NCBI GenBank assembly: GCA_046716705.1
Contig: JBKJWA010000261.1
Span: 1 to 32,912, forward strand
DNA: 32,912 nucleotides
Direction of reading: 5' to 3'
DNA from: Gaiellaceae bacterium
Lineage (GTDB): Bacteria > Actinomycetota > Thermoleophilia > Gaiellales > Gaiellaceae
Each line of letters starts with the position of its first letter. The stretch's first letter is position 1. The position numbers and the translations under genes are program-made. Of this stretch, positions 226-32,863 are shown piece after piece. The notes beneath the pieces are model-generated. The model searched no databases and was not told where the DNA came from. It saw nothing but the letters and a program-made list of their open reading frames with translations.

Positions 226-650
226 CGCTCCTCGACGCGTCGTGCCTCATCGCGCTCGCGGAAGACGAGCCGGTGGCGGCAGAGGTCGAAGCGCTGCTGC
301 GACACGAGTCGACCGTCATTACGTCCGTCAACCTGCTGGAGGTTGCCGATTACCTGACGCGCCGCGCGGGGTGGCCGGAGGACGAAGTACGAAGTCGACT
401 GGCGCTTGTCGTGGGCCACGTCGTGCGCGTTGAGCCCGTCGGCGAGGAGGAGGCGTGGCGCGGAGCGCGTATTCGTGTGCGCTATTACGAGCCGAAGATC
501 TGCGAGCTCTCACTCGCAGACTGCGTGCTGCTGGCGTCGTGTCGCGCCGACGACGCCGTCGCAACCTCCGACCCAGCGGTTGTCGCCGTCGCACGCGCGG
601 AGGGAATCGACGTCATTCCTCTGCCCGACTCGAGCGGTCGGCGCCCGTGA
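192..650 (+). CDS. vapC: PIN-domain ribonuclease toxin (VapC family)
   Basis: 152-aa ORF starting at GTG 192. The four conserved PIN acidic positions are recognisable (LLDAS near the N-terminus, NLLEV, SLADC, TSD). It has the typical overlapping antitoxin-toxin arrangement. Confidence 0.85.
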   Translation: MGPPQERAPQVTLLDASCLIALAEDEPVAAEVEALLRHESTVITSVNLLEVADYLTRRAGWPEDEVRSRLALVVGHVVRVEPVGEEEAWRGARIRVRYYEPKICELSLADCVLLASCRADDAVATSDPAVVAVARAEGIDVIPLPDSSGRRP

Positions 651-1665
651 GGACTCGCTCGTAGAGCGAGAGCGTCCGGTGCGTCATCCGCGCGACTGAG
701 AAGAGCGACCGCGCGCGGCCGACGCCGAGCGTGCCGTACATCCAGTCGCCAAGCACCGTCTTGACGTCGCGCGCGAGCGCCTCGGAGTCGTCAGGCGGAA
801 AGAGCAAGCCGGTCATGCCGTCGGCGACGAGCTCCGGCGCCGAGCCTGCGTCGGCGGCCACCACGGGCCTCCCGGCCAGCATCGCCTCCAGCATTGCGAG
901 GCCGAAGCCTTCCCAGCGCGCGGGGTGGACGACGACGTTGCAGCGCCGGTAGAGGGCCGCGACGTCTCCTACACGCCCCGGCATGAGCACACGGTCGGCG
1001 ACGCCCAGCTCACGCGCGAGCGCCTCGAGCTTCGTTCTCTCCGGCCCTTCGCCGAGCACGAGCAGCGTCGCGTCGGGGATCGACGGCAGCGCGCGGATCG
1101 CGGTGTCGACGCCTTTTTGCGGAGCGAGCCGTGCAACACAGAGCAGCAGTGGTGCGTCATCGGGAATCGGCAGCTCCGGGTTCTCGCCCCACGGCTCGGG
1201 CAGCTCGTCGAGCCCGTAGTGGATGGCCTCGAGCTTGTCCGCGGGCAGGCCGACCTCCTCAACGCTAAAGCGTTTCACTGCCTCGCTGATGGCGATGATC
1301 CGCCTCGCCCGCCGCGCGAGAAGCCGCTCCACGAAGCGCCACGGGCCGGCGCGGAACGGATCGGGGTTGTGCTTCGTGGAGACGATCGGCGTGCGCGTCG
1401 AGACCGCGCCGTAGACGTCGGCGTGCACGAGGTGCGTGTGCACGAGGTCCGGCTTCGCTCGCCGAAGTGCCCCGCGGAGCTGCCAAGGCCGCGTCAGGCG
1501 CTCGAACGGGACCTCCAGCTCGTCGTAGAACGGGTCGGCGCCGGGCATGTCAAGGCCGAGGAACCTCACGTCAACGCCCTTCGCGGCGAGCGCCGGCAGC
1601 AGCGTCAGCAGATGCCGCTCCGACCCGCCGATGCCGCCGATCCTGTGGACATGGACTATCGCCAC
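613..1665 (-). CDS. GT4-family (GT-B fold) glycosyltransferase
   Basis: 350 aa. N-terminal GGIGGSERH motif and C-terminal HPARWEGFGLAMLEAMLAGRPVV (E-x7-E type motif). Last gene of the asnB operon, with a 10-nt overlap with the upstream methyltransferase. Confidence 0.9.
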   Translation of the reverse strand: MAIVHVHRIGGIGGSERHLLTLLPALAAKGVDVRFLGLDMPGADPFYDELEVPFERLTRPWQLRGALRRAKPDLVHTHLVHADVYGAVSTRTPIVSTKHNPDPFRAGPWRFVERLLARRARRIIAISEAVKRFSVEEVGLPADKLEAIHYGLDELPEPWGENPELPIPDDAPLLLCVARLAPQKGVDTAIRALPSIPDATLLVLGEGPERTKLEALARELGVADRVLMPGRVGDVAALYRRCNVVVHPARWEGFGLAMLEAMLAGRPVVAADAGSAPELVADGMTGLLFPPDDSEALARDVKTVLGDWMYGTLGVGRARSLFSVARMTHRTLSLYERVLTGADRSSRAEE

Positions 1666-2291
1666 GCGACGGCGAGATACATGAAGCGGAAGCGCAGAGC
1701 GGCGCGGGCGAGCGGCCCCGAGCGCTCGAGCAGGCGGCCGAGGGCGAGAGCCGGTCGCGGCAAGGACTTCGTGCTCGGGATGAAGAACGGCCGCAGCGCG
1801 ACGTGCGCGAAGCCGGCGGCATGCAGGTCGGCGGTAACACGTTCGACCGGGAACTGCCGCGGATTGAAGTCGAACACGAGCTTCCGCTGGGTGTGCCCGG
1901 CCGCGTGGCGGAAGAACGCGCGGTGGTCCGTGACGTACATCATCGCGCGGAACACGGCGGTCACCGCCACGGGCTCTGGTGGGACGTAGCTGTTCATGTC
2001 GCCGACCTCGGCGGGCGCTCTTCCGCCGAGCCGCCGCCGCGCAGCCTCCACCATCTCAGGCGTGACGTCCACCGCCCGGTAGCGGAAGCCTCGCGCCAGG
2101 AGCAGCTCGCCGAGGGCGCCGTCGGCACAGGCGAGCTCGAGCACCTCGTCGCCCGGCTCGAGCGGCGGGCCGATCGAGAGCAGCAGGTCGAGGCGGTGCT
2201 CGACGTACGCGGCCGGGTTGGCGTACTGCCGGTCGGTCCAGTCCTCAGCGGCTCGCGCGTACTGGTCGGCTTTGGGATCGGAGACGGTCAT
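1656..2291 (-). CDS. class I SAM-dependent methyltransferase
   Basis: SAM-binding motif I is VLELACADGALGELLLARG, followed by YRAVDVTPEMV. ATG 2291 (MTVSD...) is chosen; the ORF-track start at 2309 is also possible. Confidence 0.85.
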   Translation of the reverse strand: MTVSDPKADQYARAAEDWTDRQYANPAAYVEHRLDLLLSIGPPLEPGDEVLELACADGALGELLLARGFRYRAVDVTPEMVEAARRRLGGRAPAEVGDMNSYVPPEPVAVTAVFRAMMYVTDHRAFFRHAAGHTQRKLVFDFNPRQFPVERVTADLHAAGFAHVALRPFFIPSTKSLPRPALALGRLLERSGPLARAALRFRFMYLAVAWR

Positions 2292-3555
2292 AGAGGTCGA
2301 GCAACGCAACGCTCGCGAGGAAGGCTAGTACGAAGTCCCAGGGGACCCGGTAGCGCGTGGCGCCGGCGAAGACGAGCGCGGCGAGCGTGTTGTACGCGAG
2401 CAGGGCTACGAATAGCACGGCAAGCCGATGCGGAAGCCGGAAGAAGCCGACGAGCGCGAGGGCGAAGAGGGGGATGATGTAGACAGGCTGCACCCACGTC
2501 CGCACGTCGTCGACGAAGGTCCCAGCCTCGGATCGCCCTTCGGTCTGGAGGGCGCGCGGGTCCCAGAGCATCCACGCAGCCTGGCCCATGAGCTTCGCCT
2601 TCTCTCCGGGATGCTCCCTCCAGAAGTCGAGCACCTCCCGCCGGTAGAGGCGCATCTGCGCGCACTCGTCGGCGGCCGTCGGCGTGCCGGCGAGCGTCAG
2701 GTCGGCGGCGAGCTCGGGCCACGGCGGCGCGCCGGGCAAGTTCGGCACGTCGTCGATGAACTTGCCCGCGGCGAGCGTGTCGTACGTCGCGAGGTTGTTC
2801 GCCTTCCAGAGCGCGCGCGAGTCGGTGGTGATCGTGAAGCAGCCGACGTTCGCCTGGTTGCGCACGAGCCATGGCAGCAGCGCGATCACGCACGTCGCCA
2901 GCGTCACCCCGACCGTCTGCCAGCCTCTCCGGCGCCAGAGGAGGTAACCGCCGACGACGAGCGGCAACAGGACGAGACGCGAGTTGCCGAGAATCGCGAG
3001 TCCGAGCACGACTCCCAGCAGCGCAGGTGTTCCGAGCCCGCCGCGCCGCTCGCCGACGAGAAGCGTGAGCAGGACGATCGCTGCCAGCAACAGTTGATCG
3101 AGGATCTCGCGATTGACGTGGACGTCATGCCAGACGAGGTACGGGTTGAGCGTGGCGATCAGCGCGGCCAGCAGGCCAGCCCGCGGCGAGAGGAACCGCC
3201 GTCCAATCTCGTAGATCAGCAGCGCGGTCGCGGCTGCCACGGCGAGCTGCGCGAAGCCGACCGTCCACCACTCGCGCCCCACGATCCAGTAGATAGGAGC
3301 GAGAAAGAACGAGTACAGCGGCTGCGTGAAGGCGGACGGCCTGCCCGCGATGAAGCCGAACGTCCCGTCGTCGACGAGCACCTGCGCGAACCGGTCGCTC
3401 TTCTCGGTGAACGCCGCGAGGATGTCGCTCCGCTCGTGGAGGAGGACGGCGAGCCGCGGCACGATCGCGGCTGCGGCGACGAGGGCGTATGCGGTGCGAC
3501 GCGTCAAGTGTCGAGATGGGTCCGCTGCCACAGCTCGAGCATGAGCAGGCACCAC
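2245..3555 (-). CDS. polytopic GT-C-fold glycosyltransferase (ArnT/PMT, GT39/GT83-like)
   Basis: 436 aa with many predicted TM helices. Layout and motifs are like phospholipid-carrier-dependent glycosyltransferases (loop after TM1, LIYEIGRRFL, LNPYLVW). Start uncertain: GTG 3555/3552/3531, or TTG 3507, which would form a TTGA overlap with the asnB stop. Confidence 0.8.
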   Translation of the reverse strand: MVPAHARAVAADPSRHLTRRTAYALVAAAAIVPRLAVLLHERSDILAAFTEKSDRFAQVLVDDGTFGFIAGRPSAFTQPLYSFFLAPIYWIVGREWWTVGFAQLAVAAATALLIYEIGRRFLSPRAGLLAALIATLNPYLVWHDVHVNREILDQLLLAAIVLLTLLVGERRGGLGTPALLGVVLGLAILGNSRLVLLPLVVGGYLLWRRRGWQTVGVTLATCVIALLPWLVRNQANVGCFTITTDSRALWKANNLATYDTLAAGKFIDDVPNLPGAPPWPELAADLTLAGTPTAADECAQMRLYRREVLDFWREHPGEKAKLMGQAAWMLWDPRALQTEGRSEAGTFVDDVRTWVQPVYIIPLFALALVGFFRLPHRLAVLFVALLAYNTLAALVFAGATRYRVPWDFVLAFLASVALLDLYDRLRSQSRPVRASR

Positions 3556-5339
3556 AGCCCGTGCGCGTGGTCGGCGCGGCCCTCCACGTGTTCCCTGAGC
3601 AGTCGCTCGACGGCGCGTGGCCGCAGCTGCCCGCGATTGCGCGCGCGAGAGTCGAGAAGCACGTCGCCGGCGAGGTCACGCAGGCCGTTCCGGAACCAGT
3701 CGGCGAGCGGCACGCCGAAACCGGACTTGCCGCGCTCGGCGATGTCGTCGGGGAGGTCGTCTGCGAAGGCGCGCCGGAGCGCCTCCTTGCCGCGCCTGCC
3801 TTTCACCTTCAGCTCGCGCGGCAGCGAGACGCCGAGCTCGAGCACCTCCCAGTCGAGGAACGGCGAGCGCAGCTCGAGCGAGTGTGCCATCGACGCGATA
3901 TCGGCCTTCAGCAGGAGATCGCCGGGAAGGTATGTCTGGATGTCGAGCAGCTGGAGCCCGGCGATGCCGTCGGCGGGCGGCGGGCCGAGGAGCTGCCAGG
4001 CCGGGGCGGGACGGGGAACGAACTCGGCGTCGAGCAGCTCGACGCGGTCCTCGGCGGGGAAGACCTCCACCAGCCTGCCGTACCGCTCTCCCGGTTGCGA
4101 GGCAGCTGCCTCGAGCAGGCGGGCCGCGCGAACGACGGTCGACCGGCGCTCTCGCCCCATGGAACGCAGCGCTCGGGCCGCGGCCCCGACGCCGGGCACG
4201 TGCAGCTTGCCGGCCAGCTCGTGCGCGACGTACCGCTCGTAGCCGGCGAACGACTCGTCTCCGCCGTCGCCGGTGAGCGCCACGGTGACATGCCGCCGTG
4301 CTGCCTCACAGACGAGGAAGAGCGGCAGAGCCGCGTCGTCTCCGAGCGGCTCGTCGAACGACTCCGCGAGGCGCGGCAGTGCCTCTGCCATGTTCCCTTC
4401 GAGCTCGATCTCCTCGTGCTCCGTCGCGTAACGCTCGGCGACAGCGCGCGCGTAGCGGCGCTCGTCGTAGCCCTCGTCGCCGAAGGCGACGGTGAAGGTG
4501 CGCACGGGGTGCGTGGACGCCTGCGCCATGAGGCCGACGACGATGCTCGAGTCGATGCCGCCCGAGAGCAAAGCGCCGAGCGGCACGTCCGAGATCAGGC
4601 GACGGCGGACGGCGGCTTCCACGCGCTCCCGGACGAGCGCGAGCCAGTCGCCGTCGCTCTCCGGCCCGAGCGGCTCGAGCTCCGCATAGCGCTCGACGCG
4701 AACGTGGCCGTCCTCGGCCACGAGCACGCTCGCCGGCGGCAGCTTCTCGACGCTCTGCAGGCCCGTCCCGCCGGGGACGTACTGGAGCGCGAGGTACGCG
4801 TCGATGGCGATCGGGTCGACCTCGCGCGACACCCGTGGCAGGCGTAGCAGCGCCTTCAGCTCGGAGGCGAACGCGAGCGAGCCGTCCGGGAGCTGCGCCC
4901 ACAGCAACGGCTTCTTGCCCACGCGGTCGCGGGCGAGCACGAGGCGCTCGCGCGTCCGATCCCAGAGCGCCACCGTGAACATCCCTGACAGGTGCTCGGC
5001 GAATCTCGACCCGTACTCCTCGTACAGGTGCGGGATGACGGGTGTGTCGCCGGTGCCACGGATCTCGTGCCCGCGTTGGGCGAGATCCTTGCGGAGCTCG
5101 AGGAAGTTGTAGATCTCGCCGTTGAAGACGGCGACGACGTCTCCGGCCTCGTTCTCGACGGGCTGGCTGCCGGTGACGAGGTCGATGATCCGGAGGCGGC
5201 GGTTGCCGAGCACGCAGCGGCCGAACGCGTCGACCGAGCCCTCATCGGGGCCGCGATGGACGAGCGCGGCGTTCATCCGTTCGACGACCGCCCGGTCTCC
5301 CTGGCCGGACGGTGCTAGGAATCCGCAGATGCCGCACAT
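3504..5339 (-). CDS. asnB: asparagine synthase (glutamine-hydrolysing) family amidotransferase
   Basis: 611 aa beginning MCGICG (Ntn catalytic Cys2). Contains the SGGIDSS PP-loop motif and full-length AsnB-like organisation. Confidence 0.9.
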   Translation of the reverse strand: MCGICGFLAPSGQGDRAVVERMNAALVHRGPDEGSVDAFGRCVLGNRRLRIIDLVTGSQPVENEAGDVVAVFNGEIYNFLELRKDLAQRGHEIRGTGDTPVIPHLYEEYGSRFAEHLSGMFTVALWDRTRERLVLARDRVGKKPLLWAQLPDGSLAFASELKALLRLPRVSREVDPIAIDAYLALQYVPGGTGLQSVEKLPPASVLVAEDGHVRVERYAELEPLGPESDGDWLALVRERVEAAVRRRLISDVPLGALLSGGIDSSIVVGLMAQASTHPVRTFTVAFGDEGYDERRYARAVAERYATEHEEIELEGNMAEALPRLAESFDEPLGDDAALPLFLVCEAARRHVTVALTGDGGDESFAGYERYVAHELAGKLHVPGVGAAARALRSMGRERRSTVVRAARLLEAAASQPGERYGRLVEVFPAEDRVELLDAEFVPRPAPAWQLLGPPPADGIAGLQLLDIQTYLPGDLLLKADIASMAHSLELRSPFLDWEVLELGVSLPRELKVKGRRGKEALRRAFADDLPDDIAERGKSGFGVPLADWFRNGLRDLAGDVLLDSRARNRGQLRPRAVERLLREHVEGRADHAHGLWCLLMLELWQRTHLDT

Positions 5340-6069
5340 GGAAGAGAAACGGTACGCGGTCGTTTCCTGCCACGTCGAACGACCGCTCGACGACGACTGC
5401 TGGCGCCGCTTCTCCCGGCTACAGGAGCGGCGGCCGGGCGGCTTCGCGATCGCCGCCCTGCTACGCCCGCCGGACGCGGCCGCCGGTGAGGACGCCGAGC
5501 TGTGGCTCGAGCGCGCCCGCGAGGCGGCCGGGCGCGGGCCGCTCGGCCATCACACTCACTTCGTCGGGCCGGCGCATGCGCGGCCGGCGGCAGGGGGCGC
5601 CGAGCACGCGGAGCGGGTTCGCAGCGAGGCGCTGTGGCTGCGAGAGAACGGCCTGGAGCCGCGGCTCTTCTGCGGCGGCGGCTGGTACATCGACGAGCAC
5701 GTCGCTTCGCTGCTGGCCGAGCTCGCGTATGCGGACTGCACGGGCACGGCGTTCGTGCCGCCCTATCTCGACGATGACGCGCCGCGTCTCTCCGCCGAGG
5801 GCCCGGCGTGGCTGTCTCTCCCCGACGGCCAGCAGCTGCTCGAGCTGCCGTCCACGCACTCGCTCGGCATGGCGGCGCGGGCGGTCACGAGTGCGCTCGC
5901 GCCGTACGTCCACGTGTACTTCCACGACACGGACTTGCTGTCCGCAAGACGTCGGTCCGCCTTGCGGTGGACACTCGCATTGCTCCGGCGGCGCTGCGAG
6001 GCAACCGATCTCGATCGCCTACGGACGGCGCCCGACGGGCTCCCCGAGCGGGACTTCGCCCTAAACTGA
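5329..6069 (+). CDS. hypothetical protein, weakly polysaccharide-deacetylase-like
   Basis: The ORF reads through 5122-6069, but only the part after the asnB start looks coding. ATG 5329 has an AGGA 8 nt upstream; ATG 5338 is the alternative. SCHVERPLDD, GHHTHF and CGGGWYID are faintly reminiscent of deacetylase metal/catalytic motifs. The functional call is weak. Confidence 0.55.
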   Translation: MPHMEEKRYAVVSCHVERPLDDDCWRRFSRLQERRPGGFAIAALLRPPDAAAGEDAELWLERAREAAGRGPLGHHTHFVGPAHARPAAGGAEHAERVRSEALWLRENGLEPRLFCGGGWYIDEHVASLLAELAYADCTGTAFVPPYLDDDAPRLSAEGPAWLSLPDGQQLLELPSTHSLGMAARAVTSALAPYVHVYFHDTDLLSARRRSALRWTLALLRRRCEATDLDRLRTAPDGLPERDFALN

Positions 6070-6076: not shown

Positions 6077-7591
6077 GTGGCAAGCGAGCCCGCGCCCTCG
6101 GAGCAGCCCGCCGGCGCGCCGGACGAACGCCGCGACCTCGGGGACATCCGTCGCGGCAGGCCGCTCGGCCTCGCCCGCGCCCAGCTGCGGACGATCACGT
6201 TCCGTGTCGGCGGCGTCGCCTGCCTCATCGCGCTCGACATCGTCGGCCTGACCATCGCCATCTATGCAGCTCTCGTCCTGCGGGACGTCTACTACGGCAA
6301 CACCGTGTTCTGGGGGATCCTCTGGGGAGAAGCGCTTCCCGACTATCTGCCGTTCGCCGCGCTTGTGACCGTGCTCGTGTTCTCGCAGGCGCGGCTCTAC
6401 GCGACGCGCGAGCGGCGGCCGGGGTTCGGGCGGATCGTCTCGTCGATCTTTCTCGTCGCGCTGCTGACGTTTGCCTTCGGCGTCGGCATCGGCCACGAGT
6501 TCTCGACCTTCGGCCTCATCCCCACGACCGCGGTCTTCGCCGTCGTGCTCATCGGCCTCTTCCGGGCGAGCTACGACGTCGTCACGCGCGAGATCTTCCA
6601 CCTCCTCGGCATCCGCCGCCGCGCGGTGCTCGTGGGCGAGGGCGACCACCTCGTCCACCTCTACAGGACTCTCGGCTCCGGCCGCAGCGGCATCGACTAC
6701 GAGCTCATCGGCGTCGTCACCGCCGAGGAGGAGTCCGACGTGCCGCTGCCCCGGCTCGGGAGCGCCGACTCGCTGCGGGCGGTCCTCGCCCAGCATCCGG
6801 TGGACGAGCTGATCGTCACCGACACGGACTTCGGCGAGCGCGAGCTGCTCGAGCTTGTCGACCAGGCGCATCGCTCGGGCGTTCGGATCCGCATCGCGCC
6901 GCGGACGACTGAGCTGCTGACGAAGCACGCCGACTACGTGCCGGGACAGGGCATCCCGCTGTTCGAGATCACACCGCCGGTGCTCGTCGGCACGGATTGG
7001 GCGCTGAAGCGCGGCTTCGACGTCGTCGTGTCGCTGCTCGTGCTCGTGGTCGGCCTGCCGCTGTGGCTCGCGATCGCCGCCGGTGTGAAGCTCTCCTCGA
7101 GGGGGCCTGTGCTCTACCGCGACCGCCGTGTCGGCCTCGGGGAGCGGGAGTTCGGGATGGTGAAGTTCCGGACGATGTACGCGGACGCCGCGGAGCAGCA
7201 GGCAGAGCTCGAGGAGGCGAACGAGGCAGCTGGGGCGCTCTTCAAGATCCGCGACGACCCGCGGGTGACGCCGCTCGGGCGGTTCCTGCGCCGGTACTCG
7301 CTCGACGAGATCCCGAACGTCGTCAACGTCCTGCGCGGCGAGATGAGCCTCGTCGGCCCGCGCCCGCTGCCGACGCGCGACTACAACCTCCTCGAGGAGT
7401 GGCACCTCAAGCGCTACCTCGTGTTGCCGGGGATGACGGGCCTTTGGCAGATCTCGGGGCGGTCGAACCTCTCCTTCGACGACCTCGTACGACTCGACTT
7501 CTACTACCTCGACAACTGGTCGATCTGGCTCGACATCTCGATCCTCGCGCGCACGATCCCGGCTGTGATCTCTAAGCGGGGCGCGTACTGA
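6077..7591 (+). CDS. polyprenyl-phosphate hexose-1-phosphate transferase (WbaP/WcaJ-like, bacterial sugar transferase family)
   Basis: 504 aa. The C-terminal catalytic domain has KFRTM, DPRVTPLGRFLRRYSLDEIPN and MSLVGPRP motifs. The N-terminal half has 4 TM helices plus a Rossmann-like VLVGEG...ELIGVV module. Confidence 0.9.
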   Translation: MASEPAPSEQPAGAPDERRDLGDIRRGRPLGLARAQLRTITFRVGGVACLIALDIVGLTIAIYAALVLRDVYYGNTVFWGILWGEALPDYLPFAALVTVLVFSQARLYATRERRPGFGRIVSSIFLVALLTFAFGVGIGHEFSTFGLIPTTAVFAVVLIGLFRASYDVVTREIFHLLGIRRRAVLVGEGDHLVHLYRTLGSGRSGIDYELIGVVTAEEESDVPLPRLGSADSLRAVLAQHPVDELIVTDTDFGERELLELVDQAHRSGVRIRIAPRTTELLTKHADYVPGQGIPLFEITPPVLVGTDWALKRGFDVVVSLLVLVVGLPLWLAIAAGVKLSSRGPVLYRDRRVGLGEREFGMVKFRTMYADAAEQQAELEEANEAAGALFKIRDDPRVTPLGRFLRRYSLDEIPNVVNVLRGEMSLVGPRPLPTRDYNLLEEWHLKRYLVLPGMTGLWQISGRSNLSFDDLVRLDFYYLDNWSIWLDISILARTIPAVISKRGAY

Positions 7592-25432: not shown

Positions 25433-26187
25433 AGGTCTCGGCCGTCGTCGTCAGCCACGGCCACCGCGAGGAGCTCGCCGAGTCGCTGCCTACCCTCGTC
25501 CCGCAGGTGGACGAAGTGGTCGTGATCGCGAACACGGCGGGCTCCGCCCCCGCGGATGCACTCGGTGCGCGCGTGATCGAGAACGGCCGGCCGACGGGCT
25601 ACGCGGCGAACATCAACGCGGGCACGCGGGCGACCAGCGGCGAGCTCGTCCTCGTCTCGAATCCCGACGCGGTGCCCAAGCCTGGGGCGATCGCCGTCCT
25701 CGACGAATTCATGGAGACACACCCACGCTGCGGCGTCGCAGGGCCGCAGCTCGTGAACGAAGACGGCTCGTGGCAGCCCTCGCGACGCCGCTTCCCGACC
25801 GTGAGAGGCACGCTCGTCCGTCGCACGCCCCTCCGCCGCCTGCGCCCGCCGCTCGAGCACCAGCGTGACCACTACCTCCTCGACGTGCGTCCCACCGAGC
25901 CTGTCGAGACCGATTGGATGCTCGGCGGCTGTCTCATGCTGCGCCGCGCGATGCTCGACGAGCTGGGCGGCTTCGATGAGGGCTTCCGCATGTACGGCGA
26001 GGAGATCGACCTCTGCTACCGCGCGGCGAAGGCGGGTTGGGAACGCTGGTACGTGCCCGAAGCCGTCGTGCGTCACCGCTGGGATGCGGCGACCGACAAG
26101 AGCTTCTTCACGAAGCGAACGCTGTGGCACTGGCGTGGCATCTTCCGCTTCGTCCGCAAGCACCCCGAGCGCCTCAAGGCGCTCTAA
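25429..26187 (+). CDS. GT2-family glycosyltransferase (WbbL/RfbF rhamnosyltransferase-like)
   Basis: VSAVVVSHGH..., GYAANINAG, LVSNPDAV, GPQLVNEDGS, GGCLMLRR, and FRMYGEEIDLCYR are typical of this GT-A subgroup. GTGA overlap with the upstream stop. Confidence 0.85.
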   Translation: MKVSAVVVSHGHREELAESLPTLVPQVDEVVVIANTAGSAPADALGARVIENGRPTGYAANINAGTRATSGELVLVSNPDAVPKPGAIAVLDEFMETHPRCGVAGPQLVNEDGSWQPSRRRFPTVRGTLVRRTPLRRLRPPLEHQRDHYLLDVRPTEPVETDWMLGGCLMLRRAMLDELGGFDEGFRMYGEEIDLCYRAAKAGWERWYVPEAVVRHRWDAATDKSFFTKRTLWHWRGIFRFVRKHPERLKAL

Positions 26188-26189
26188 CC

Positions 26190-28355
26190 TCAGCGCGACC
26201 CGCGGGGGACAAACAGGTATCCGACCTGCGCCCCGAGCTCGCGCCGGTCGGATTCGCCCTCGTAGTCCGACGGCGAGAACGTCGGCCGCACCGTCACCTC
26301 CACGCGGAAGGGCGGCGCCGGCGCCGGAATGACGAACGTCGCCCGCGAGAGGCTGTGGATCGTCCAGCGCCGTGTCGCGGTCACCTTGCCGAGGTGCGGC
26401 TGCTTGTCGGCGCCCTTGACGAGCGTTCCGACGCGGATCAGCACCCGGCCGGGCTTGTCGGGCCCGCCCCAAGCCCACCGGCCGATCCTCACGACCATGT
26501 TCCCTCCCTTGCCGCTCGGCGAGGCGTACTGGTTGTACGCGCTCTCGGCGCCCATCCAGCCGTCGACGAAGATGCCTGTCTCGGCGTGAGCGAGGCGCAG
26601 CGGCCCGTCGAGCTTGTAGACGAACCAGCGGCCGGTCTCGGGCGGTCGCCCGACGAGCTCGCCGTCCACGTCGACGCCCCGCTCGGCGAGGACATAGCGC
26701 GCTCCCGGGTCGGGGGCCAGCCGGCCGTCCGTCGCTACGAGGTCGGGCGTGAGAACCGGCCCGGGGCCGGGCGCCGTGCCGTCGATGCTCCACACGTGCT
26801 TCAGCGAACGGTTCCAGAACTCGGTCAGCCAGACCCCGAGGGCCGCGCCGGTGTTGATGTTCTGCCCGAGGTACACGACCGGCTCGCCGCCCGTGATGTC
26901 GTCGAGCCACGTGAGCGGCTTCGGGTAGTTACGTGTGATGAGGTCGCCCGCGTCGTTCGAGTACTTGGCAGCGGAGATCTGGCCCGTGAGCGTCCAGGCT
27001 AAGACGAGCGCAGCCGTCAGCCCGACCACCGCCCGCGCGGCCGTCCGGCGGGCTCCGAGCAATGTCGGCAGGACGAGCAGCAGCACCGACACTGCGAGCG
27101 TCATGATCAGTGCCCACTGGACGGCGCTGTCGGTGAACGAGAAGTTGCGGTTGGACATCTGCGCGATGGCGAGACCGAGCGCGTCCGAGTACGGGACGTT
27201 CTCGAGCGCGTAGTTGGCCGACACGAGCAGGTACGCGACGAAGGCGGCCGCGGCCGCGAGGGGCACCCAGCGCAGCTGCGGCCGCTCGAGCCAGAGGGCG
27301 GTGCCGACGAAGACGAGCGGGATGAGATAGATGAGGTTCCGCTCGACGATGACCGTGCCGAAAGCCGTCGAGAGATACGAGGCCTTGACGGCGGTGTAGA
27401 GGCCGAAGCACAGGAGTGCGGCGGAAAGGAGCGCGGTGAACGCGCGCAGCGCCGGCGTCCGCTCCTCGCCTTTGGGACGGATGAGCCCCGCGAGGGCGGC
27501 CACGACCGGCAGGACACCCAGGCCGATGACGAAGGCGCCGCCGGCCCAGACGCCGTACTCGATCATCCGCCCGCGGTAGTGGCCGGTAGCGATCAGCCAG
27601 CTCTGTGAGAAGTTGCCCGCAACGGCTGAGAAGAAGATGACCGCGCCCGTTGTCAGCACCACGGCGCCGACCCAGTCCCAGGCCGTCCACGACGCGCGCC
27701 AGCGCCGTCCGGCGTCGCTCGTGAGGAAGTAGAAGAACCCGGCGAGCGGGAACGCGACGGCGATCACGCCCAGCTCGGCCCGCACGAGCGGGGCGACGAG
27801 ACACGCGACCACCGCGCCGGCGATCCACCAGCGCGTCTGCGCCACGATCGCCTTGGCGATAAGGAAGAAGCAGAGAGCCGCGTACGGATACGCGAGCGCC
27901 TCTTCTGAGATGACCTGCGAGTAGGCGAGCGCGGGCACGGTTGCGGTGGCAGTCGCGGCGAACAGCCCCGCGGGCTTGCCGACGATCGTCCGCGCGAGGA
28001 AGTACGTGGGGAAGACGACCGCCGTCATCGTGAAGACGCCGATGTAGCGGACGAGGTCGTACGCGGATGACGTCGAGTCGATCCACCAGGCGGGCGCGGT
28101 TAGGTACGTGTAGAGCGTCTCGAAGAAGTGCGGCTCGCCGCGCCTGGCCGCCTCACCGGTCTCCGCGATGCTCCGCGACAGCTGCGTCAGCTCGAGCTCG
28201 TCGGTGAAGAGCCACGGCGACGTGTGCCGCCACGACTGGTACGCATAAAGCGATGCGAGCCAGATGAAGATCGTCGCGAGTGGCAGGGCGGCGTACGCGC
28301 GATCGAGCCAGGTGCGGTCGCCGGCAGCCGCCGCCGGGGCGGCGGGGGACGTCAT
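26190..28355 (-). CDS. large polytopic GT-C-fold glycosyltransferase with C-terminal extracytoplasmic domain
   Basis: 721 aa. FTDELELTQLSRSIA, VFPTYFLARTIV and SEEALAYP align with the 20318-22390 protein. More than 10 TM helices and a beta-rich tail. ATG 28355 forms an ATGA overlap with the upstream stop. Confidence 0.8.
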   Translation of the reverse strand: MTSPAAPAAAAGDRTWLDRAYAALPLATIFIWLASLYAYQSWRHTSPWLFTDELELTQLSRSIAETGEAARRGEPHFFETLYTYLTAPAWWIDSTSSAYDLVRYIGVFTMTAVVFPTYFLARTIVGKPAGLFAATATATVPALAYSQVISEEALAYPYAALCFFLIAKAIVAQTRWWIAGAVVACLVAPLVRAELGVIAVAFPLAGFFYFLTSDAGRRWRASWTAWDWVGAVVLTTGAVIFFSAVAGNFSQSWLIATGHYRGRMIEYGVWAGGAFVIGLGVLPVVAALAGLIRPKGEERTPALRAFTALLSAALLCFGLYTAVKASYLSTAFGTVIVERNLIYLIPLVFVGTALWLERPQLRWVPLAAAAAFVAYLLVSANYALENVPYSDALGLAIAQMSNRNFSFTDSAVQWALIMTLAVSVLLLVLPTLLGARRTAARAVVGLTAALVLAWTLTGQISAAKYSNDAGDLITRNYPKPLTWLDDITGGEPVVYLGQNINTGAALGVWLTEFWNRSLKHVWSIDGTAPGPGPVLTPDLVATDGRLAPDPGARYVLAERGVDVDGELVGRPPETGRWFVYKLDGPLRLAHAETGIFVDGWMGAESAYNQYASPSGKGGNMVVRIGRWAWGGPDKPGRVLIRVGTLVKGADKQPHLGKVTATRRWTIHSLSRATFVIPAPAPPFRVEVTVRPTFSPSDYEGESDRRELGAQVGYLFVPRGSR

Positions 28356-30169
28356 TCGACCGCGGCGCCCAACGCGACGAGTGGATCTACGTCGAGGTCC
28401 CTGCGCACGAATCTGCAGGGTACTTGCGCCCGCTTGCATGCTTGCACCACCCCGTCGAGGACGTCGCGCGGGGCCGCCGGGATCGTCACGAGCACGAGAT
28501 CGGGGCGGGACTGCGCAAGGACGCGCTCGATGTCGCGGAGCGAGCCGAGCACTGGCACGCCCTGCATGCGCCGACTCCGGAGCCTGGCGTCGTCGTCCAC
28601 GAAGCCGACGACGTGCTCACCCGGCGTCTCGCGCAGCTCGCGCAACAGGCTCCGGCCGCTGCGACCGGCGCCGACGAGCAGCGTCCGCCGCCGCTCGTGC
28701 CGGTCGCGGAAGGACGCATGGGCGCGGAACATCGCGCGTTCGGCGAAGCGAGAAGCGCCCACGAGGACGAGCGCGATGAGCGCGTCGAGCACGTAGATCC
28801 GCTGCGGGAAGTCCCCGAAGGGACGGCTCGTGAACCACACGATCCCGTACGCGAGCCCCTGCGAGACGATGACGGCGAAGGCGATCGCGGCTGCCTCGCG
28901 CGCGCCGGCGAAGCGCCAGACACCGCTGTAGAGGCCGGCGGGGATGAAACAGAGGTAGCGCGCGAAGAGGATCGCCGGCAGCGAGACGAGGAAGATGTGC
29001 TTCTCGTAGTCCGTGCCCGAGCCGTCCACGAACAGCAGGTACGCGATCGTGAACGAGGCGGTGATGAGGGCGAAGTCGACGAGCACCTCCACGAGCCGGC
29101 GAGGGCTGAGGAGGATGCGCCACAGGGCAACGGGACGGCCGTCGACCACGCGCTCGCCCTCGTCGATGTCCGTCAGGAAGCCGGCGAGCTGGACGAGCAG
29201 CGCGAACGTCACGAGCACGCCGACGAGCGTCACCCACCCGTTGTCGAGCCCCGAGTAGGCGAGGCTCGTCAGCCCGAGCCCGGCGGCGATCGCAGTCAGC
29301 AGGACGACGGTGCCCTTCTCGGAGATGCCGCTGCGCACGAGCCGGTGGGACGCGTGGTCGCGGCCTCCCTGGTGGATCGGCCGCCCCTCCACGAGCCGGA
29401 CTGCGGTGACGAGCGCCGTGTCGAGGATCGGTACCGCGAGCACGAGCATCGGGATGATGAGAGTGGCGATCGTCGATTCCGCCACCTTCCAGCTCGTCGC
29501 GAGGCCGAGTGCTGCCAGGGTGAGCCCGATCACCTGGCTGCCCGAGTCGCCCATGAACACAGCAGCGGGCTTTCGGGGGCGGAAGTTGAACAGGAGGAAG
29601 CCGGCCACCGCGAGCGCCAGTGCGAGCGAAACCACGAGCAGGAGCTCGTCGTCGTGGATCCAGACGGCGTCGATCGCGAAGAAGACGGCGGCCACGACGG
29701 CGAGGCTCCCGGCCAGCCCGTCCATGTTGTCGAGGAGGTTGAAGGCGTTCGTGATCGCCACGAGCCACAGCAGGCCGAGGGCGGTGGCGGCGACGTCGTT
29801 CTCGACGATCTCCACGCGGATCCCCGACGCGAGCACGACGCCGGCCGCGGCGAACTGGCCTGCGAGCTTCACCGGTGGCGGCAGTGAGCGCAGATCGTCG
29901 AGCAGGCCGAACGCGAAGATGACCGCTGCCCCGCCGGCGATGCCCCCGAGCTCCCAAGTCGGCTCGATCGCGCCTGCGAGGAGACAGGCACCGATCCCTG
30001 CGAGCAGGCCGAGGAAGATGCCGACGCCGCCGTGGAGCGGTGTCTCCTGCTGGTGCCAGCGGTCGCCCGACGGGGTGGCCACGAGGCGGCCGCCAAGGCC
30101 GTTTCGCAGCAGCGCCCAGATCGTCAGCGCGGCGACCGGGAGGGCGACGATGGCTGCGACGGCGCTCAT
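28352..30169 (-). CDS. WecA/MraY-family polyprenyl-phosphate N-acetylhexosamine-1-phosphate transferase fused to a C-terminal 4-TM plus Rossmann-like (WbaP/CapD N-terminal-type) module
   Basis: Residues 1 to about 332 carry FGLLDDL, NAFNLLDNMDGL, FMGDSGS and GGRDHASHRL, the hallmark PNPT motifs. Residues about 345-605 have 4 further TM helices, YSGVWRFAG, then TLLVGAGRSGRSLLRELRETPGEHVVGFVDDD...VPVLG...DLVLVTIP. Confidence 0.9.
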   Translation of the reverse strand: MSAVAAIVALPVAALTIWALLRNGLGGRLVATPSGDRWHQQETPLHGGVGIFLGLLAGIGACLLAGAIEPTWELGGIAGGAAVIFAFGLLDDLRSLPPPVKLAGQFAAAGVVLASGIRVEIVENDVAATALGLLWLVAITNAFNLLDNMDGLAGSLAVVAAVFFAIDAVWIHDDELLLVVSLALALAVAGFLLFNFRPRKPAAVFMGDSGSQVIGLTLAALGLATSWKVAESTIATLIIPMLVLAVPILDTALVTAVRLVEGRPIHQGGRDHASHRLVRSGISEKGTVVLLTAIAAGLGLTSLAYSGLDNGWVTLVGVLVTFALLVQLAGFLTDIDEGERVVDGRPVALWRILLSPRRLVEVLVDFALITASFTIAYLLFVDGSGTDYEKHIFLVSLPAILFARYLCFIPAGLYSGVWRFAGAREAAAIAFAVIVSQGLAYGIVWFTSRPFGDFPQRIYVLDALIALVLVGASRFAERAMFRAHASFRDRHERRRTLLVGAGRSGRSLLRELRETPGEHVVGFVDDDARLRSRRMQGVPVLGSLRDIERVLAQSRPDLVLVTIPAAPRDVLDGVVQACKRAQVPCRFVRRDLDVDPLVALGAAVE

Positions 30170-30176
30170 GGCGAAA

Positions 30177-30182: not shown

Positions 30183-30235
30183 GTGAGCTGCTGTTAAGCA
30201 CGTGTGTGGCCGTCCTTTCCGGTACAGAGTACGCC

Positions 30236-31186
30236 GTGCCCGTGACGCCCACGCTGCTCGAGCTGCTGCGCTGCTCCGTCTGCCGCAGCTCACTCGATGC
30301 GGACGGCTCAACGCTGCGCTGCCGCAGCTGCGGCGCAGCGTTCCCTGTGGAAGACGGCATGCCGCGGATGCTCGACGACCGCCTGCCCGGCATCCATGCC
30401 AAGCGGCGCGAGATCGAGGGCTGGCCGGCGATGGCGAAGGCGCAGGGCTGGTACGAGCGCGACGACGAGATCGACGCCCATCTCCCGTACCTCAACCGCG
30501 ATCTCGGCTGGGACGACAAGAACTGGCGCGCGACGGAGCACTCGTTCTCGCTGCTGCTCGATCACTACGTGCGTCCGGGCATGCGGGTGCTCGAGGTGGG
30601 AGCGGCGAAGGCGTGGGCGGCGCAGCACGTAGTGCCGCTCGGCTGCGAGTACGTGGCGACGGACATCCTCGCCGACCCGGTGATCGGACTAGGTCGTGGT
30701 GCCTTCTACGAGGCGCGGGTCGGCGCGTTCGGCCGCGTCCAGGCCGACGGGGAGCACCTTCCCTTCGCCTCCGAGGCATTCGACGTTACGTACTGCGTCG
30801 CCGCGCTCCACCATGCGCTCGACCTGACGGCGATGGTGCGCGAGATGGCGCGCGTCACCCGCAAGGGCGGCTGGGTTTGCGCGCTGAACGAGGGCACGCG
30901 GGCCCTCGGCGCCGCGGCCGACGTGCCCGACCAGGCCGAAGAGAAGGGCTTCGGCATCAACGAGCACGTGCACACGCTCTACGCGTACCTCTGGGCGTTC
31001 GCGCGCTCGGCCCTCGTCGTGCGGCGCGTCGAGCAGGCAGAAGGGTACGGCGAGCTCGCCGGCCGGAGGATCGCCGGCCGCCTCCTGCGCCTGCCCGGCA
31101 TGGGGCGCAGCGCCGCGACGTTCTTCTCCCAGACCTGCCACGGGTACTCAGGCGTCTCCGTCTACGCTCGTAGACTGCTCTCGTGA
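30236..31186 (+). CDS. SAM-dependent methyltransferase with N-terminal Trm112-like zinc ribbon
   Basis: LLRCSVCRSSL...LRCRSCGAAFPVEDGMPRML has a CxxC...CxxC pattern. It is followed by VLEVGAAKAW, a Methyltransf_11-like core (ADGEHLPFASEAFD) and ARVTRKGGWV. Start is GTG 30236; GTG 30206 and 30242 are alternatives. Confidence 0.8.
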   Translation: MPVTPTLLELLRCSVCRSSLDADGSTLRCRSCGAAFPVEDGMPRMLDDRLPGIHAKRREIEGWPAMAKAQGWYERDDEIDAHLPYLNRDLGWDDKNWRATEHSFSLLLDHYVRPGMRVLEVGAAKAWAAQHVVPLGCEYVATDILADPVIGLGRGAFYEARVGAFGRVQADGEHLPFASEAFDVTYCVAALHHALDLTAMVREMARVTRKGGWVCALNEGTRALGAAADVPDQAEEKGFGINEHVHTLYAYLWAFARSALVVRRVEQAEGYGELAGRRIAGRLLRLPGMGRSAATFFSQTCHGYSGVSVYARRLLS

Positions 31187-31302
31187 CGTCTGCCGATCAG
31201 AGCACGGCTTGCGCGTTCCTCGGCCGTCGCTCGCAAGGGAGACAAGGGCGCGGCGCGAAGGACAGTACGTCGGGTACGGCCAAGCGCCGAGCCCGCAGGA
31301 TC

Positions 31303-31349
31303 CCGCCGCGAGCGGCGGCAGGCTACGGCGGAGGGCGGCCTCGCCGCCC
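31303..31349 (+). other. two GC-rich stem-loops in the wzm upstream spacer
   Basis: CCGCCG-cgag-CGGCGG (31303-31318) and GGGCGGC-ctc-GCCGCCC (31333-31349). Neither is followed by a T-tract. Confidence 0.3.
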
Positions 31350-31376
31350 GGGAGCCGCAGCCGGCGAGGGGCGCGC

Positions 31377-32174
31377 ATGAGCGTCTACGCGGATCTGATC
31401 CGCTACCGCGAGCTCTTCGGCAGCCTCTTCCGCCGCGATCTGCGCGCCCGCTACAAGGGCACGATCTTCGGCGTCGCCTGGTCGCTCGTGAACCCGATCA
31501 TGCTGGCCGCGATCTACGTCCTCGTCTTCTCGCTGCTCTGGGAGGTGACGTCGATCGACCGCTACCCGCTGTTCCTGCTCTGCGGGCTCAGCGTGTGGCT
31601 CTTCGTCTCGTCGTCCCTCACCGGCGCCGCGCGGTCGATGCTCGACTACGCAGAGCTGATCAAGAAGGTGCGCTTTCCGCGGCAGCTCGTGGCGTTCTCG
31701 GTCGTCGCGACACAGCTTGTGCCGTTTGCCGTGTTGCTCGGCGGGTTGATCGTCGTCAACGCGATCGTCCTCGACCGGACGCGCGACACCGTGTTGCTGT
31801 CGATTCCCGTCGCGGCCGCGATCGTCGTGCTCGTGGCCGGTATGGCGCTGGCGGTCGCCGCGGCGAACGTGGTCTTCCGCGACGTGGAGCACCTGCTGGC
31901 GGCGCTCCTCCTCCCGTGGTTCTTCCTCACGCCGATCCTCTACTCGCTTGAGGAGTTGCCCGGCGGCCTCGAGGACTACGACCTCGTCGTCGATCTCCTG
32001 CGTTGGGCAAACCCGCTCACGCCGCCGCTCTACGCGTTGCGCGATCCGCTCTTCTACGGCGAAATGCCGGCGGCGGGTGACGTGATCTACCTCGTGGTGG
32101 CAGCTGCCGTGTCGCTCGCGATCGGCGCGCTCGTCTTCCGGCGGATCGACGACAGCATCGCCGTCGAGCTCTAG
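31377..32174 (+). CDS. wzm: ABC-2-type polysaccharide/teichoic-acid export permease (Wzm/TagG/KpsM-like)
   Basis: Begins MSVYADLIRYRELFGSLFRRDLRARYKGTIFGVAWSLVNP, the canonical Wzm N-terminus, followed by 6 TM helices. GAGGGG lies 5 nt upstream of ATG 31377. 38 of the first 40 codons end in G/C. Confidence 0.85.
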   Translation: MSVYADLIRYRELFGSLFRRDLRARYKGTIFGVAWSLVNPIMLAAIYVLVFSLLWEVTSIDRYPLFLLCGLSVWLFVSSSLTGAARSMLDYAELIKKVRFPRQLVAFSVVATQLVPFAVLLGGLIVVNAIVLDRTRDTVLLSIPVAAAIVVLVAGMALAVAAANVVFRDVEHLLAALLLPWFFLTPILYSLEELPGGLEDYDLVVDLLRWANPLTPPLYALRDPLFYGEMPAAGDVIYLVVAAAVSLAIGALVFRRIDDSIAVEL

Positions 32175-32863
32175 GAGGGCCTGAGCACGAGCGAGGCGTC
32201 GTAGACCCACGGCTCGTCCGTGGGCGCGCGGAAGGCAGCGAGCCCCTCGACGTCGGGGAGGCGCTCGAGCTCGACTTCGTGCAGCACGGACGGGCATAGC
32301 AACGCGTGGGCGAAGCCCGGGACGCGTCCGGGGCCGGGCGCCCACGGCGCGAGCCGCTTGCGGAGGCGTCGTGGGGCGTCGATCGCGCCGGCGACGACCG
32401 CGTACCCCTCGGCGTGGAGCTCCAGCACGCGGCTCTCCCATTCAAGCGTGGTCGAAGACGGATGGACGGTTGCGACATCGCGCAGTGACGTTGCGTCGAC
32501 GCGCGGCAGCACGTCTACAGCCTCGCTCGGCGCGTCGTTCTCCCCGAGCTCGCCGAACCAGGCGCGGTGCTCGGCGACGAGGTCGAGCGCGAAGCCGTAC
32601 CGCGCCGGCGGCATCGGCGCTCGCACGGCGATCTCGAGCGAGACGCGTTCGCCGGGCGCAACAGGGCCTGGGAGCGCGCTGCGAATCCCGTCCCAGACGA
32701 TGGCGTTGCCGCGCTCGTCGAGCCAGTGGTACGAGGCTGAGATGTCGTCACCCCAAGTGGCCACTCCGGCGTTCTCCACGTCCGCCCGTGCCGTCGTCAC
32801 CGCTCCGGCGCGGGGCGGCTCGAGTGACCACGAGCGCCAGCGTGCGACGAGAGGCCCGGGCAC
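32171..32863 (-). CDS. hypothetical protein with N-terminal Ig-like (NBR1-like) beta-sandwich domain
   Basis: 230 aa starting at GTG. The pattern VENAGVATW...SYHWLDERGN...DGIRSALPGPVAPGERVSLEIAVRAPMPPARYGFALDLVAEHRAWF matches a beta-sandwich module I recognise from glycan-cluster proteins. High GC3. Its stop shares a CTAG with the wzm stop. Confidence 0.65.
   Translation of the reverse strand: MPGPLVARWRSWSLEPPRAGAVTTARADVENAGVATWGDDISASYHWLDERGNAIVWDGIRSALPGPVAPGERVSLEIAVRAPMPPARYGFALDLVAEHRAWFGELGENDAPSEAVDVLPRVDATSLRDVATVHPSSTTLEWESRVLELHAEGYAVVAGAIDAPRRLRKRLAPWAPGPGRVPGFAHALLCPSVLHEVELERLPDVEGLAAFRAPTDEPWVYDASLVLRPS

Follow-up and report, generated by a model that had tools for sequence, protein, structure and literature searches.

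The window analysed in this work is a stretch of 32,912 nucleotides from a Gaiellaceae bacterium (positions 1 to 32,912 of contig JBKJWA010000261.1, assembly GCA_046716705.1), and it carries a large cluster of genes for the assembly of an envelope glycan. The interval 613-32863 is tiled by 28 non-overlapping genes under a codon-position GC model, and about 99% of it is coding. As described below, these genes probably direct the synthesis of one methylated polysaccharide that is exported by an ABC transporter, whose ATPase gene, wzt, almost certainly lies just beyond the right end of the window.

Since the G+C content is uniformly high across the window (68-72%), the raw list of open reading frames (ORFs) is rich in spurious frames. 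Stop/start overlaps of 4 nt are common among the window genes, whose strand alternates over at least nine transcription units. Families were assigned by Pfam and NCBIfam hidden Markov model (HMM) scans of the 28 proteins; Rfam and tRNA scans of the window gave no matches. The genes are listed below with their main evidence, where a number directly after a Pfam accession is an E-value, SAM stands for S-adenosylmethionine, TM for transmembrane, and AF2 for an AlphaFold2 model.

g01, 613..1665, minus strand: GT4 family GT-B glycosyltransferase (PF00534 8e-41, PF13439 7e-25; orthologues 55-90% identical in relatives)
g02, 1656..2291, minus strand: class I SAM methyltransferase (PF13649 1.4e-8)
g03, 2245..3555, minus strand: GT-C glycosyltransferase, PMT_2 (PF13231 6e-14)
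g04, 3504..5276, minus strand: glutamine-dependent AsnB-family amidotransferase (PF00733 6e-101, GATase_7; TIGR01536 405 bits, above cut-off)
g05, 5329..6069, plus strand: conserved protein, probable (beta/alpha)7 barrel of the GH57/CE4 superfamily (AF2, Foldseek)
g06, 6077..7591, plus strand: large monotopic phosphoglycosyl transferase, WbaP/WcaJ type (PF02397 3e-62, PF13727; TIGR03025 368 bits, above cut-off)
g07, 7594..8808, plus strand: GT-B-like glycosyltransferase, Glyco_trans_1_2 / CgeB-like (PF13524 1e-28)
g08, 8789..9538, plus strand: GT2 polyprenyl-phosphate sugar synthase, GacI/PpgS/AglJ-like (PF00535 3.5e-26)
g09, 9535..9897, plus strand: DUF2304 small membrane protein, GacJ/Rv3632/WpsB-like (PF10066 1e-22)
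g10, 9869..11245, minus strand: GT-C glycosyltransferase, GT87/PMT_2-like (PF09594 2e-7, PF13231 3e-7; ~10 TM segments)
g11, 11242..12900, minus strand: GT-C glycosyltransferase with C-terminal soluble domain (PF13231 1e-6; ~12 TM segments)
g12, 12897..13811, minus strand: GDP-L-fucose synthase homologue, GDP-4-keto-6-deoxymannose 3,5-epimerase/4-reductase (NF047922 289 bits, cut-off 500; PDB matches)
g13, 13808..14956, minus strand: nucleoside diphosphate-hexose 4,6-dehydratase (PF16363 9e-63)
g14, 15028..15768, plus strand: SAM methyltransferase (PF08241 5e-18)
g15, 15758..16822, minus strand: GT4 glycosyltransferase (PF00534 7e-27, PF13439 1e-16)
g16, 16936..17997, plus strand: SAM methyltransferase with N-terminal extension of ~150 aa (PF13489 3e-13 over residues 156-311)
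g17, 18110..19135, plus strand: GT4 glycosyltransferase (PF00534 1e-31)
g18, 19132..20337, plus strand: GT-B glycosyltransferase, GT1-type C-terminal domain (PF00534 2e-16, PF13692 2e-15)
g19, 20318..22390, plus strand: large GT-C glycosyltransferase with C-terminal beta-rich domain (PMT_2 24 bits, cut-off 26.1; g24 paralogue)
g20, 22387..23460, plus strand: GT4 glycosyltransferase (PF00534 6.5e-23, PF13439 8e-16)
g21, 23457..24422, plus strand: GT4 glycosyltransferase (PF00534 2e-23, PF13439 4e-19)
g22, 24419..25432, plus strand: GT4 glycosyltransferase (PF13692 2e-20, PF13439 5e-16)
g23, 25429..26187, plus strand: soluble GT2 glycosyltransferase (PF13641 4e-12, PF00535 1e-10)
g24, 26190..28355, minus strand: large GT-C-fold glycosyltransferase with C-terminal beta-sandwich resembling a carbohydrate-binding module (CBM) (AF2, Foldseek; translationally coupled to g25)
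g25, 28352..30169, minus strand: polytopic phosphoglycosyl transferase, WecA/WbpL type, with a module of four TM helices (4-TMH) and PF13727 (PF00953 7e-30 over residues 77-224, PF13727 9e-15 over 417-588)
g26, 30236..31186, plus strand: Trm112-like zinc ribbon and SAM methyltransferase (PF03966 1e-9, PF08241 4.5e-14)
g27, 31377..32174, plus strand: Wzm-type ABC-2 permease (PF01061 1e-13; 6 TM segments)
g28, 32171..32863, minus strand: conserved soluble protein, faint Ig-like match, convergent with wzm (position kept in relatives)

The resulting enzyme tally is two initiators, eight GT-B, two GT2 and five GT-C glycosyltransferases and four SAM methyltransferases, in addition to an AsnB amidotransferase, a dehydratase/GDP-L-fucose-synthase pair, a DUF2304 protein and an ABC-2 permease; g05, g24 and g28 have no Pfam family match. 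An initial annotation of the sequence had given the same two initiators, the two GT2 enzymes (g08 and g23), five GT-C enzymes, four methyltransferases (g02, g14, g16 and g26) and the amidotransferase g04. It had also counted nine GT-B enzymes, of which eight are found (g01, g07, g15, g17, g18, g20, g21 and g22). A ninth is not: g05 was rejected for this role because its model is a GH57/CE4-type (beta/alpha)7 barrel, and g28 gives only a faint Ig-like match.

The permease g27 has galactan export permease Wzm/RfbD as its best NCBIfam match (73 bits, below the cut-off). None of the 28 window proteins matches a Wzx, Wzy, WaaL, Wzz or LCP family, and every polytopic membrane protein of the window has an assignment other than Wzx or Wzy; in addition, neither the Walker-A pattern GxxxxGK[ST] nor LSGGQ occurs in any of the six frames. 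Within the window, these scans bear out the absences reported in the initial annotation, including that of a Walker-A ATPase. As a property of the system, however, the absence of Wzt does not hold. An exact-sequence look-up of g27 returned nothing on record, and we therefore took the genomic context from homologues. In four syntenic relatives (L001, L002, L090 and L092, whose g25 orthologues are 90, 80, 65 and 63% identical, respectively), a Wzt gene encoding ABC_tran and Wzt_C domains lies 3-4 kb past wzm. The gene order there is g26, wzm, the g28 homologue, hemE, hemH, wzt, a small ORF and, further on, cofD, with occasional inserted genes such as a cupin gene in the closest relative. Residues 9-380 of the relatives' Wzt align with the Aquifex aeolicus O-antigen Wzt with its carbohydrate-binding domain (PDB 8dku, E = 3.5e-71), and DNA alignment with the closest relative continues to the final base of the window, 32912, about 60 nt upstream of that relative's hemE start. 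Since the relatives carry hemE-hemH-wzt and the window is collinear with the closest of them to its end, the missing Wzt can almost certainly be put down to the position of the window end, with wzt lying just beyond. The apparent oddity of a hybrid system without an ATPase is thus largely removed.

This arrangement is seen at 992-2880 in L001, 4240-7041 in L002, 4062-7318 in L090 and 1998-6037 in L092. In it, wzt stands apart from wzm and immediately downstream of hemE and hemH, two genes of heme biosynthesis, and its start overlaps the end of hemH; the partnership is odd, yet it is conserved among relatives of 63-90% identity.

The two initiators belong to different superfamilies. For g25, the WecA model TIGR02380 matches residues 28-328 (98 bits), and the WcaJ/WbaP models of NCBIfam are matched, through their N-terminal half only, by residues 363-589. 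The protein carries the polytopic phosphoglycosyl transferase (PGT) motifs DD92-93, NAFNLLDNMDGL at 141-152 (NxxNxxDxxDGL-like) and DHASHRL (the HxxHRL stretch), whereas g06, with both PF13727 and PF02397, carries the monotopic-PGT motifs, namely the catalytic DE at 410-411 and PRP at 428-430. Judged by these motifs, both are intact polyprenyl-phosphate PGTs.

In g25 a polytopic PGT is united with a 4-TMH + PF13727 module. This module is known from large monotopic PGTs and from PglF-like dehydratases, and has been proposed to be a uridine monophosphate sensor; polytopic PGTs are listed as "PGT only" in the summary table of that 2024 eLife paper (PMC10942596). An exhaustive HMMER search yielded 1801 representatives at E <= 1e-30, and among the best 150 of these most align end to end at 30-45% identity. 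All five distant family members of ~600 aa that we inspected carry PF00953 and PF13727, and three members of ~950 aa add a Polysacc_synt_2 dehydratase, which makes them WecA/WbpL-PglF/WbpM fusions. Going by these alignments, the architecture is common; we did not find it in the accessible PGT literature.

For g24, and for g19 by paralogy, membership of the GT-C superfamily was judged by three criteria, namely 7-13 TM helices, one or more conserved acidic residues in the extracytoplasmic loop after the first helix (TM1), and a fold match to solved GT-C enzymes. The Pfam PMT_2 cut-off is passed by g03, g10 and g11. The orthologues of g19 are annotated as PF13231 (PMT_2), and g24 is its paralogue (27% identity over 670 aa, E = 3e-17). 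In g24 (721 aa), ~12-14 TM segments precede a soluble tail of ~260 aa. It has 1168 homologues, all named "hypothetical" and coming from Gaiellaceae/Thermoleophilia, and the family appears to be confined to Thermoleophilia-like sequences. We built an AlphaFold (AF2) model of g24 on 30 homologues (pLDDT 82, pTM 0.78). Its best PDB neighbours by Foldseek are all GT-C enzymes, namely EmbB, EmbA/B, STT3, PglB, AftD, ALG9, AglB and AftA (E = 2e-5 to 1e-3, probability 1.0); the TM-scores, 0.30-0.36, are low, so that in the model the GT-C fold class is clear while the scores are too modest to name a subfamily. The C-terminal beta-sandwich is weakly CBM-like by Foldseek. On its TM helices, acidic first loop and modelled fold, g24 is a GT-C enzyme, as is g19 by paralogy. 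PDB sequence searches with g24, g19 and g11 gave nothing usable.

The first-loop acidic residues, whose loss would have refuted the reading given in the initial annotation, are kept in all five proteins. D52-E53 of g24 is invariant in 30 homologues, D44-E45 of g19 and D31-E32 of g10 (after TM1) are each present in 10 of 10 orthologues, and D56 of g11 (GGDQ) in 13 of 13. For g03, a "DD" in the first loop was rejected as catalytic, being not conserved; E51/D54 are conserved at ~93% instead, and D144/E150/D153 are invariant (~90 orthologues). The g03 start is probably at 3555 (436 aa, TM1 included) rather than 3462. A faint NCBIfam match and the PglB/STT3 fold also raised g24 as an STT3-type oligosaccharyltransferase. 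We rejected this identification, because Emb/Aft structures match equally well and the motif WWDxG is absent from g24 and all 30 homologues, as it is from g03, g10, g11 and g19.

A donor for such enzymes can be predicted from g08 and g09. The best NCBIfam matches of g08 are AglJ, PpgS and dolichyl-phosphate-hexose transferase, all below the cut-offs; the protein has a DGD motif at 98-100 and a hydrophobic C-terminal helix, and g09 lies directly downstream with an overlap of 4 nt. By family and arrangement, g08/g09 are a polyprenyl-phosphate-sugar synthase pair of the GacI/GacJ (PpgS/Rv3632) type and counterparts of WpsA/WpsB. In those systems, the GT2 enzyme, with stimulation from its DUF2304 partner, synthesises a polyprenyl-monophosphate sugar that serves a GT-C enzyme outside the membrane (10.1101/180810; PMC10821137). 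Similarly, three-component modification by GT-C enzymes of O antigens made by the ABC-transporter route is established in Gram-negative bacteria (PMC11127046). The elements of the three- or four-component glycosylation sets (GtrA/B/C; GacI/J/K/L; PpgS/Rv3632/Rv3779) that are present here are the GT2 enzyme, the DUF2304 partner and the GT-C enzymes. Together with a WbaP-type initiator, the presence of five GT-Cs suggests either several side-chain additions or a dual-chain assembly like that of lactococci.

The remaining enzymes bear on the composition of the chain. Orthologues of g07 are 69-96% identical and always adjoin g06/g08. The GT2 enzyme g23 has an MftF-like protein as its best NCBIfam match (72 bits). 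Its earlier description as WbbL-like was dropped, because it scores 28 bits on the rhamnosyltransferase model, whose cut-off is 200 bits, and there are no rml genes. The suggestion of a 6-deoxyhexose in the product, in contrast, is made plausible by g12, which aligns along its entire length with solved GDP-L-fucose synthases (PDB 7ll6/8du0, E = 6e-66; E. coli 1e6u, 5e-56). The gene pair g13-g12 overlaps by 4 nt, and because of this coupling GDP-mannose is the predicted substrate of g13. The amidotransferase g04 has the XrtA/PEP-CTERM exopolysaccharide amidotransferase model as its best NCBIfam match and probably amidates a sugar carboxylate. Among the methyltransferases, g14 is weakly similar to the mycofactocin oligosaccharide O-methyltransferase MftM, and g26 stands beside wzm in L001, L002, L090 and L092. 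On the circumstantial grounds of this position and of the Wzt_C domain in relatives, g26 is the best of the four candidates for a chain-terminating (capping) methyltransferase.

Conservation of the locus was examined by tblastn of all 28 proteins against the loci of relatives. The closest g25 homologues come from Gaiellaceae metagenome-assembled genomes (MAGs) and soil metagenomes. The genes g01-g20 occur in the same order in 7 MAGs at 54-96% identity; note that the scan of genome contigs with g11, from which these 7 MAGs come, reached close relatives only. The genes g18-g28 are kept in L002, L090 and L092. The core g13-g12-g11-(g10)-g09-g08-g07-g06-g05-(g04)-g03-g01 was recovered, with identities of 50-75%, from dozens of soil contigs. 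In the 65%-identity relative, both halves of the locus lie on one 186-kb contig, and since the gap between them has exactly the expected size, the whole locus is contiguous there. In the long-read MAG assemblies L003-L009 and L091, orthologues are split into many in-frame pieces. These splits are probably homopolymer frameshift errors rather than pseudogenes, so that a synteny coverage below 1.0 does not signify gene decay. Because gene order is kept across relatives and composition is uniform, we regard the cluster, on these comparisons, as a vertically inherited core envelope locus and not a strain-variable O-antigen or capsule island. The synteny search gave only uncharacterised MAGs and metagenome contigs; a characterised syntenic locus, which would have counted against the initial annotation, was not found.

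From these data, we consider it probable that the window holds most of a conserved locus of ~36-45 kb for one methylated, fucose-type envelope heteropolysaccharide, made by an ABC-transporter-dependent route combined with extracytoplasmic glycosylation. The elements of such a route seen in the window are a PGT initiator (g25) and Wzm (g27), with no Wzx or Wzy among the 28 proteins. In this scheme, g25 would prime polyprenyl phosphate with an N-acetylhexosamine-1-phosphate, and the GT4 and GT2 enzymes would polymerise in the cytoplasm a chain with L-fucose or a related 6-deoxyhexose, which probably also bears an amidated uronic acid and O-methyl sugars. One methyltransferase, for which g26 is the best candidate, would then cap the non-reducing end. 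The cap would be read by the Wzt_C domain of the Wzt encoded just to the right of the window (hemE-hemH-wzt); terminal-cap recognition as in E. coli O9a is proposed because the relatives' Wzt has this domain. Wzm/Wzt would export the capped chain, and outside the membrane the five GT-Cs would add side branches or segments from the lipid-linked sugar of g08/g09. An oligosaccharide initiated by g06 may serve them as well, which would make for a dual-chain scheme resembling the lactococcal one of rhamnan and polysaccharide pellicle (PSP). The final acceptor, whether peptidoglycan, lipid or protein, and the ligase would be encoded outside the window. The core logic, WecA primer, cytoplasmic polymerisation, ABC export and extracytoplasmic GT-C action, had been proposed in the initial annotation; the gene families agree with it, and the Wzt of the relatives strengthens it.

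Several points count against this scheme. A second initiator, g06, is present, and the two halves of the locus could make two separate products. Neither the window nor, in the relatives examined, the DNA within 10 kb of the anchor genes yielded a GtrA-, Wzx- or MATE-type flippase for the polyprenyl-phosphate sugar, and the window and the flanks examined in relatives likewise gave no ligase, be it LCP, WaaL or another. Wzt is placed by the synteny of relatives and is not seen in this genome, and g13 is about equally far from RmlB (2e-32) and Gmd (1e-24) structures, which bears on its nucleotide specificity. Finally, the evidence consists of genes alone, from which the sugars, linkages, methylation positions and expression cannot be derived.

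The presence of two intact initiators of different superfamilies, together with the division of the genes into nine or more transcription units that alternate in strand, raises the question of whether the locus comprises two adjacent, independent pathways: a WbaP module g01-g11, with g08/g09 and three GT-Cs, and a WecA/Wzm/Wzt module g14-g28, with g12/g13 shared or belonging to one of them. The left part, g13-g01, is also the most widely recovered in metagenome contigs and has its own indels (the optional g04 and g10). However, in every relative in which both halves are seen, down to 63-65% identity, they adjoin one another and keep their order; the left module lacks a separate exporter, having neither Wzx nor a second ABC transporter; and GT-C genes are interleaved in both halves, with g19 and g24 standing among GT4 genes and beside the WecA-type gene. 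We therefore regard separate pathways as possible but unlikely. A Wzx/Wzy-dependent pathway initiated by g06 was rejected: g06 is intact, but neither Wzx nor Wzy turned up among the window proteins. A further reading, which we consider distinctly unlikely, is that the paralogues g19 and g24 stand in for Wzy, WaaL and LCP as extracytoplasmic polymerases or ligases of lipid-linked oligosaccharides, in a dual-chain process with two initiators that makes an essential, lineage-defining wall heteropolysaccharide of Gaiellales/Thermoleophilia. If true, this would be an independent actinobacterial counterpart of arabinogalactan-type assembly.

The exported glycan might instead be destined for protein, such as an S-layer protein or a lipoprotein, with g24 or g19 acting as the oligosaccharyltransferase that moves the Wzm/Wzt-exported lipid-linked glycan en bloc. 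ABC-transporter-dependent S-layer glycan pathways with methyl caps occur in Geobacillus, the locus has no LCP or WaaL ligase, and translational coupling ties g24 to the initiator g25; the g24 model fits PglB, STT3 and AglB about as well as Emb/Aft, and an archaeal STT3 model matches g24 faintly over the first-loop region (E = 1e-5). Nevertheless, the WWDxG motif that defines STT3/PglB/AglB is missing, as described above, the TM-scores do not separate oligosaccharyltransferases from GT-Cs that use polyprenyl-phosphate sugars, and the locus shows no gene for an S-layer or acceptor protein, so that we find protein glycosylation quite improbable. A hybrid that truly has no Wzt, in which a lone Wzm or the GT-Cs would export without a dedicated ATPase, agrees with the absence of Walker-A and ABC-signature motifs from every frame of the window. 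It is extremely improbable given the Wzt with Wzt_C in four of four relatives examined and a window that ends in a collinear region just short of hemE-hemH-wzt; moreover, no ABC-2 permease is known to function without a nucleotide-binding domain.

The favoured scheme, that of one capped and exported heteropolysaccharide decorated outside the membrane, can be compared with several known systems. The Streptococcus pyogenes group A carbohydrate (GacO, GacB-G, GacD/E, GacI/J/K/L) likewise has a WecA-family primer, a cytoplasmic chain rich in 6-deoxyhexose, ABC export, a GT2 + DUF2304 pair and extracytoplasmic GT-C action (10.1101/180810), the counterparts here being g25, g27, g08/g09 and the GT-Cs. 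In contrast to that system, the present locus has five GT-Cs instead of one, an extra WbaP-type initiator, no GacK-like Wzx-type flippase, GDP-fucose-type rather than dTDP-rhamnose genes, four methyltransferases and, as seen in relatives, a Wzt_C-bearing Wzt whose gene stands away from wzm. In lactococci, the rhamnan and PSP (TagO, RgpA-F, RgpC/D, WpsA/B, WpsG, WpsI/J) are lipid-linked chains that each have their own initiation; one leaves the cell through the ABC transporter, and the other is polymerised or attached outside by GT-Cs; WpsA/WpsB are homologues of GacI/GacJ, as are g08/g09 (PMC10821137). Here the second chain would start from the WbaP-type g06 or from g08, and no Wzx-type flippase, rml genes or LCP were found in the locus. 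By analogy, we hypothesize that dual-chain assembly might also operate in the Gaiellaceae locus.

In the Pseudomonas aeruginosa common polysaccharide antigen (CPA), the 6-deoxyhexose is supplied via a GDP-sugar. This antigen and E. coli O8/O9a resemble the present system in WecA/WbpL priming, GT4 polymerases and Wzm/Wzt export, and their chains stop at a terminal methyl(phosphate) cap, which the carbohydrate-binding module of Wzt recognises (PMC3482155). The present locus differs in having a GT-C stage and no WbdD-like kinase/coiled-coil ruler, WaaL or lipopolysaccharide context, the organism being an actinobacterium; capping here is inferred from the Wzt_C domain and the methyltransferases alone. 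The analogy with mycobacterial arabinogalactan/lipoarabinomannan made in the initial annotation stands for the general logic, that is, WecA priming, Wzm/Wzt-type export and many outside GT-Cs, some of them CBM-tailed, and the PpgS/Rv3632 pair is homologous to g08/g09. It fails for the specific machinery: no homologue of WbbL, GlfT, UbiA/DprE (DprE1/2, for decaprenylphosphoryl arabinose) or Ppm1 was detected in the window, the sugar genes differ, and the GT-Cs share only the fold of Emb/Aft (TM-scores as above) and are not orthologues.

The assembly logic thus has precedents in streptococci, lactococci, Klebsiella and mycobacteria, and since the mechanism follows established rules, the value of the locus is mainly descriptive. 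Members of the Gaiellaceae abound in soil, hardly any of these actinobacteria have been cultured, and our search for their envelope glycans in the literature on Gaiella and Thermoleophilia returned ecology papers only. A strictly conserved locus of ~40 kb provides a genetic handle on their main surface polymer, with relevance to envelope evolution in deep-branching Actinomycetota, to phage and antibody receptors and to the soil carbon chemistry of methylated deoxy-sugars. Of broader use are three by-products, namely the polytopic-PGT + 4TMH/PF13727 fusion and two families absent from Pfam, the GT-C family of g24 and the GH57/CE4-like family of g05.

The g05 family (~246 aa) has 3980 homologues, all unnamed, and always lies between an AsnB-type amidotransferase and a WbaP-type initiator. 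Pfam, NCBIfam and PDB sequence searches gave no match, the last including one with a g05 profile. The AF2 model (pLDDT 89.5) is a seven-stranded beta/alpha barrel, for which Foldseek finds a GH57 4-alpha-glucanotransferase (TM-score 0.60) and CE4/NodB deacetylases. The residues H15, E17, H75, H77, H177, H199 and D200 are invariant. From the modelled fold, g05 is a probable metal-dependent sugar deacetylase or hydrolase and not a glycosyltransferase. The residue types that are invariant across the family are His, Asp, Glu and Cys.

At the right end, g28 (~230 aa) gave no significant Pfam, NCBIfam or PDB match beyond the faint Ig-like signal. Its orthologues, 44-77% identical, occupy the same position in L001, L002 and L090, and L092 has there a 254-aa ORF to which no family was assigned. 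The protein might be an accessory to the exporter, or unrelated.

The methyltransferase gene g02 is present at its place (1656-2291) in some relatives only. In L002 (13997-14620) and L092 (13951-14583), an extra methyltransferase gene lies between g24 and g23, where the window has none (26187-26190). The product of this gene is 54% identical to g02, which suggests, from the sequences, that a methyltransferase gene has moved within the locus.

At the left edge, a vapBC-like toxin-antitoxin pair occupies 1-650 on the plus strand, with its PIN domain at 192-650, and converges on g01; the short ORF upstream of the PIN gene runs off the window start. DNA homology to the relatives ends at about position 657, and at this spot the relatives have instead further GT4, GNAT acetyltransferase and CE4 deacetylase genes. 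For these two reasons, we take the toxin-antitoxin module to mark an insertion or rearrangement at the edge of the locus.

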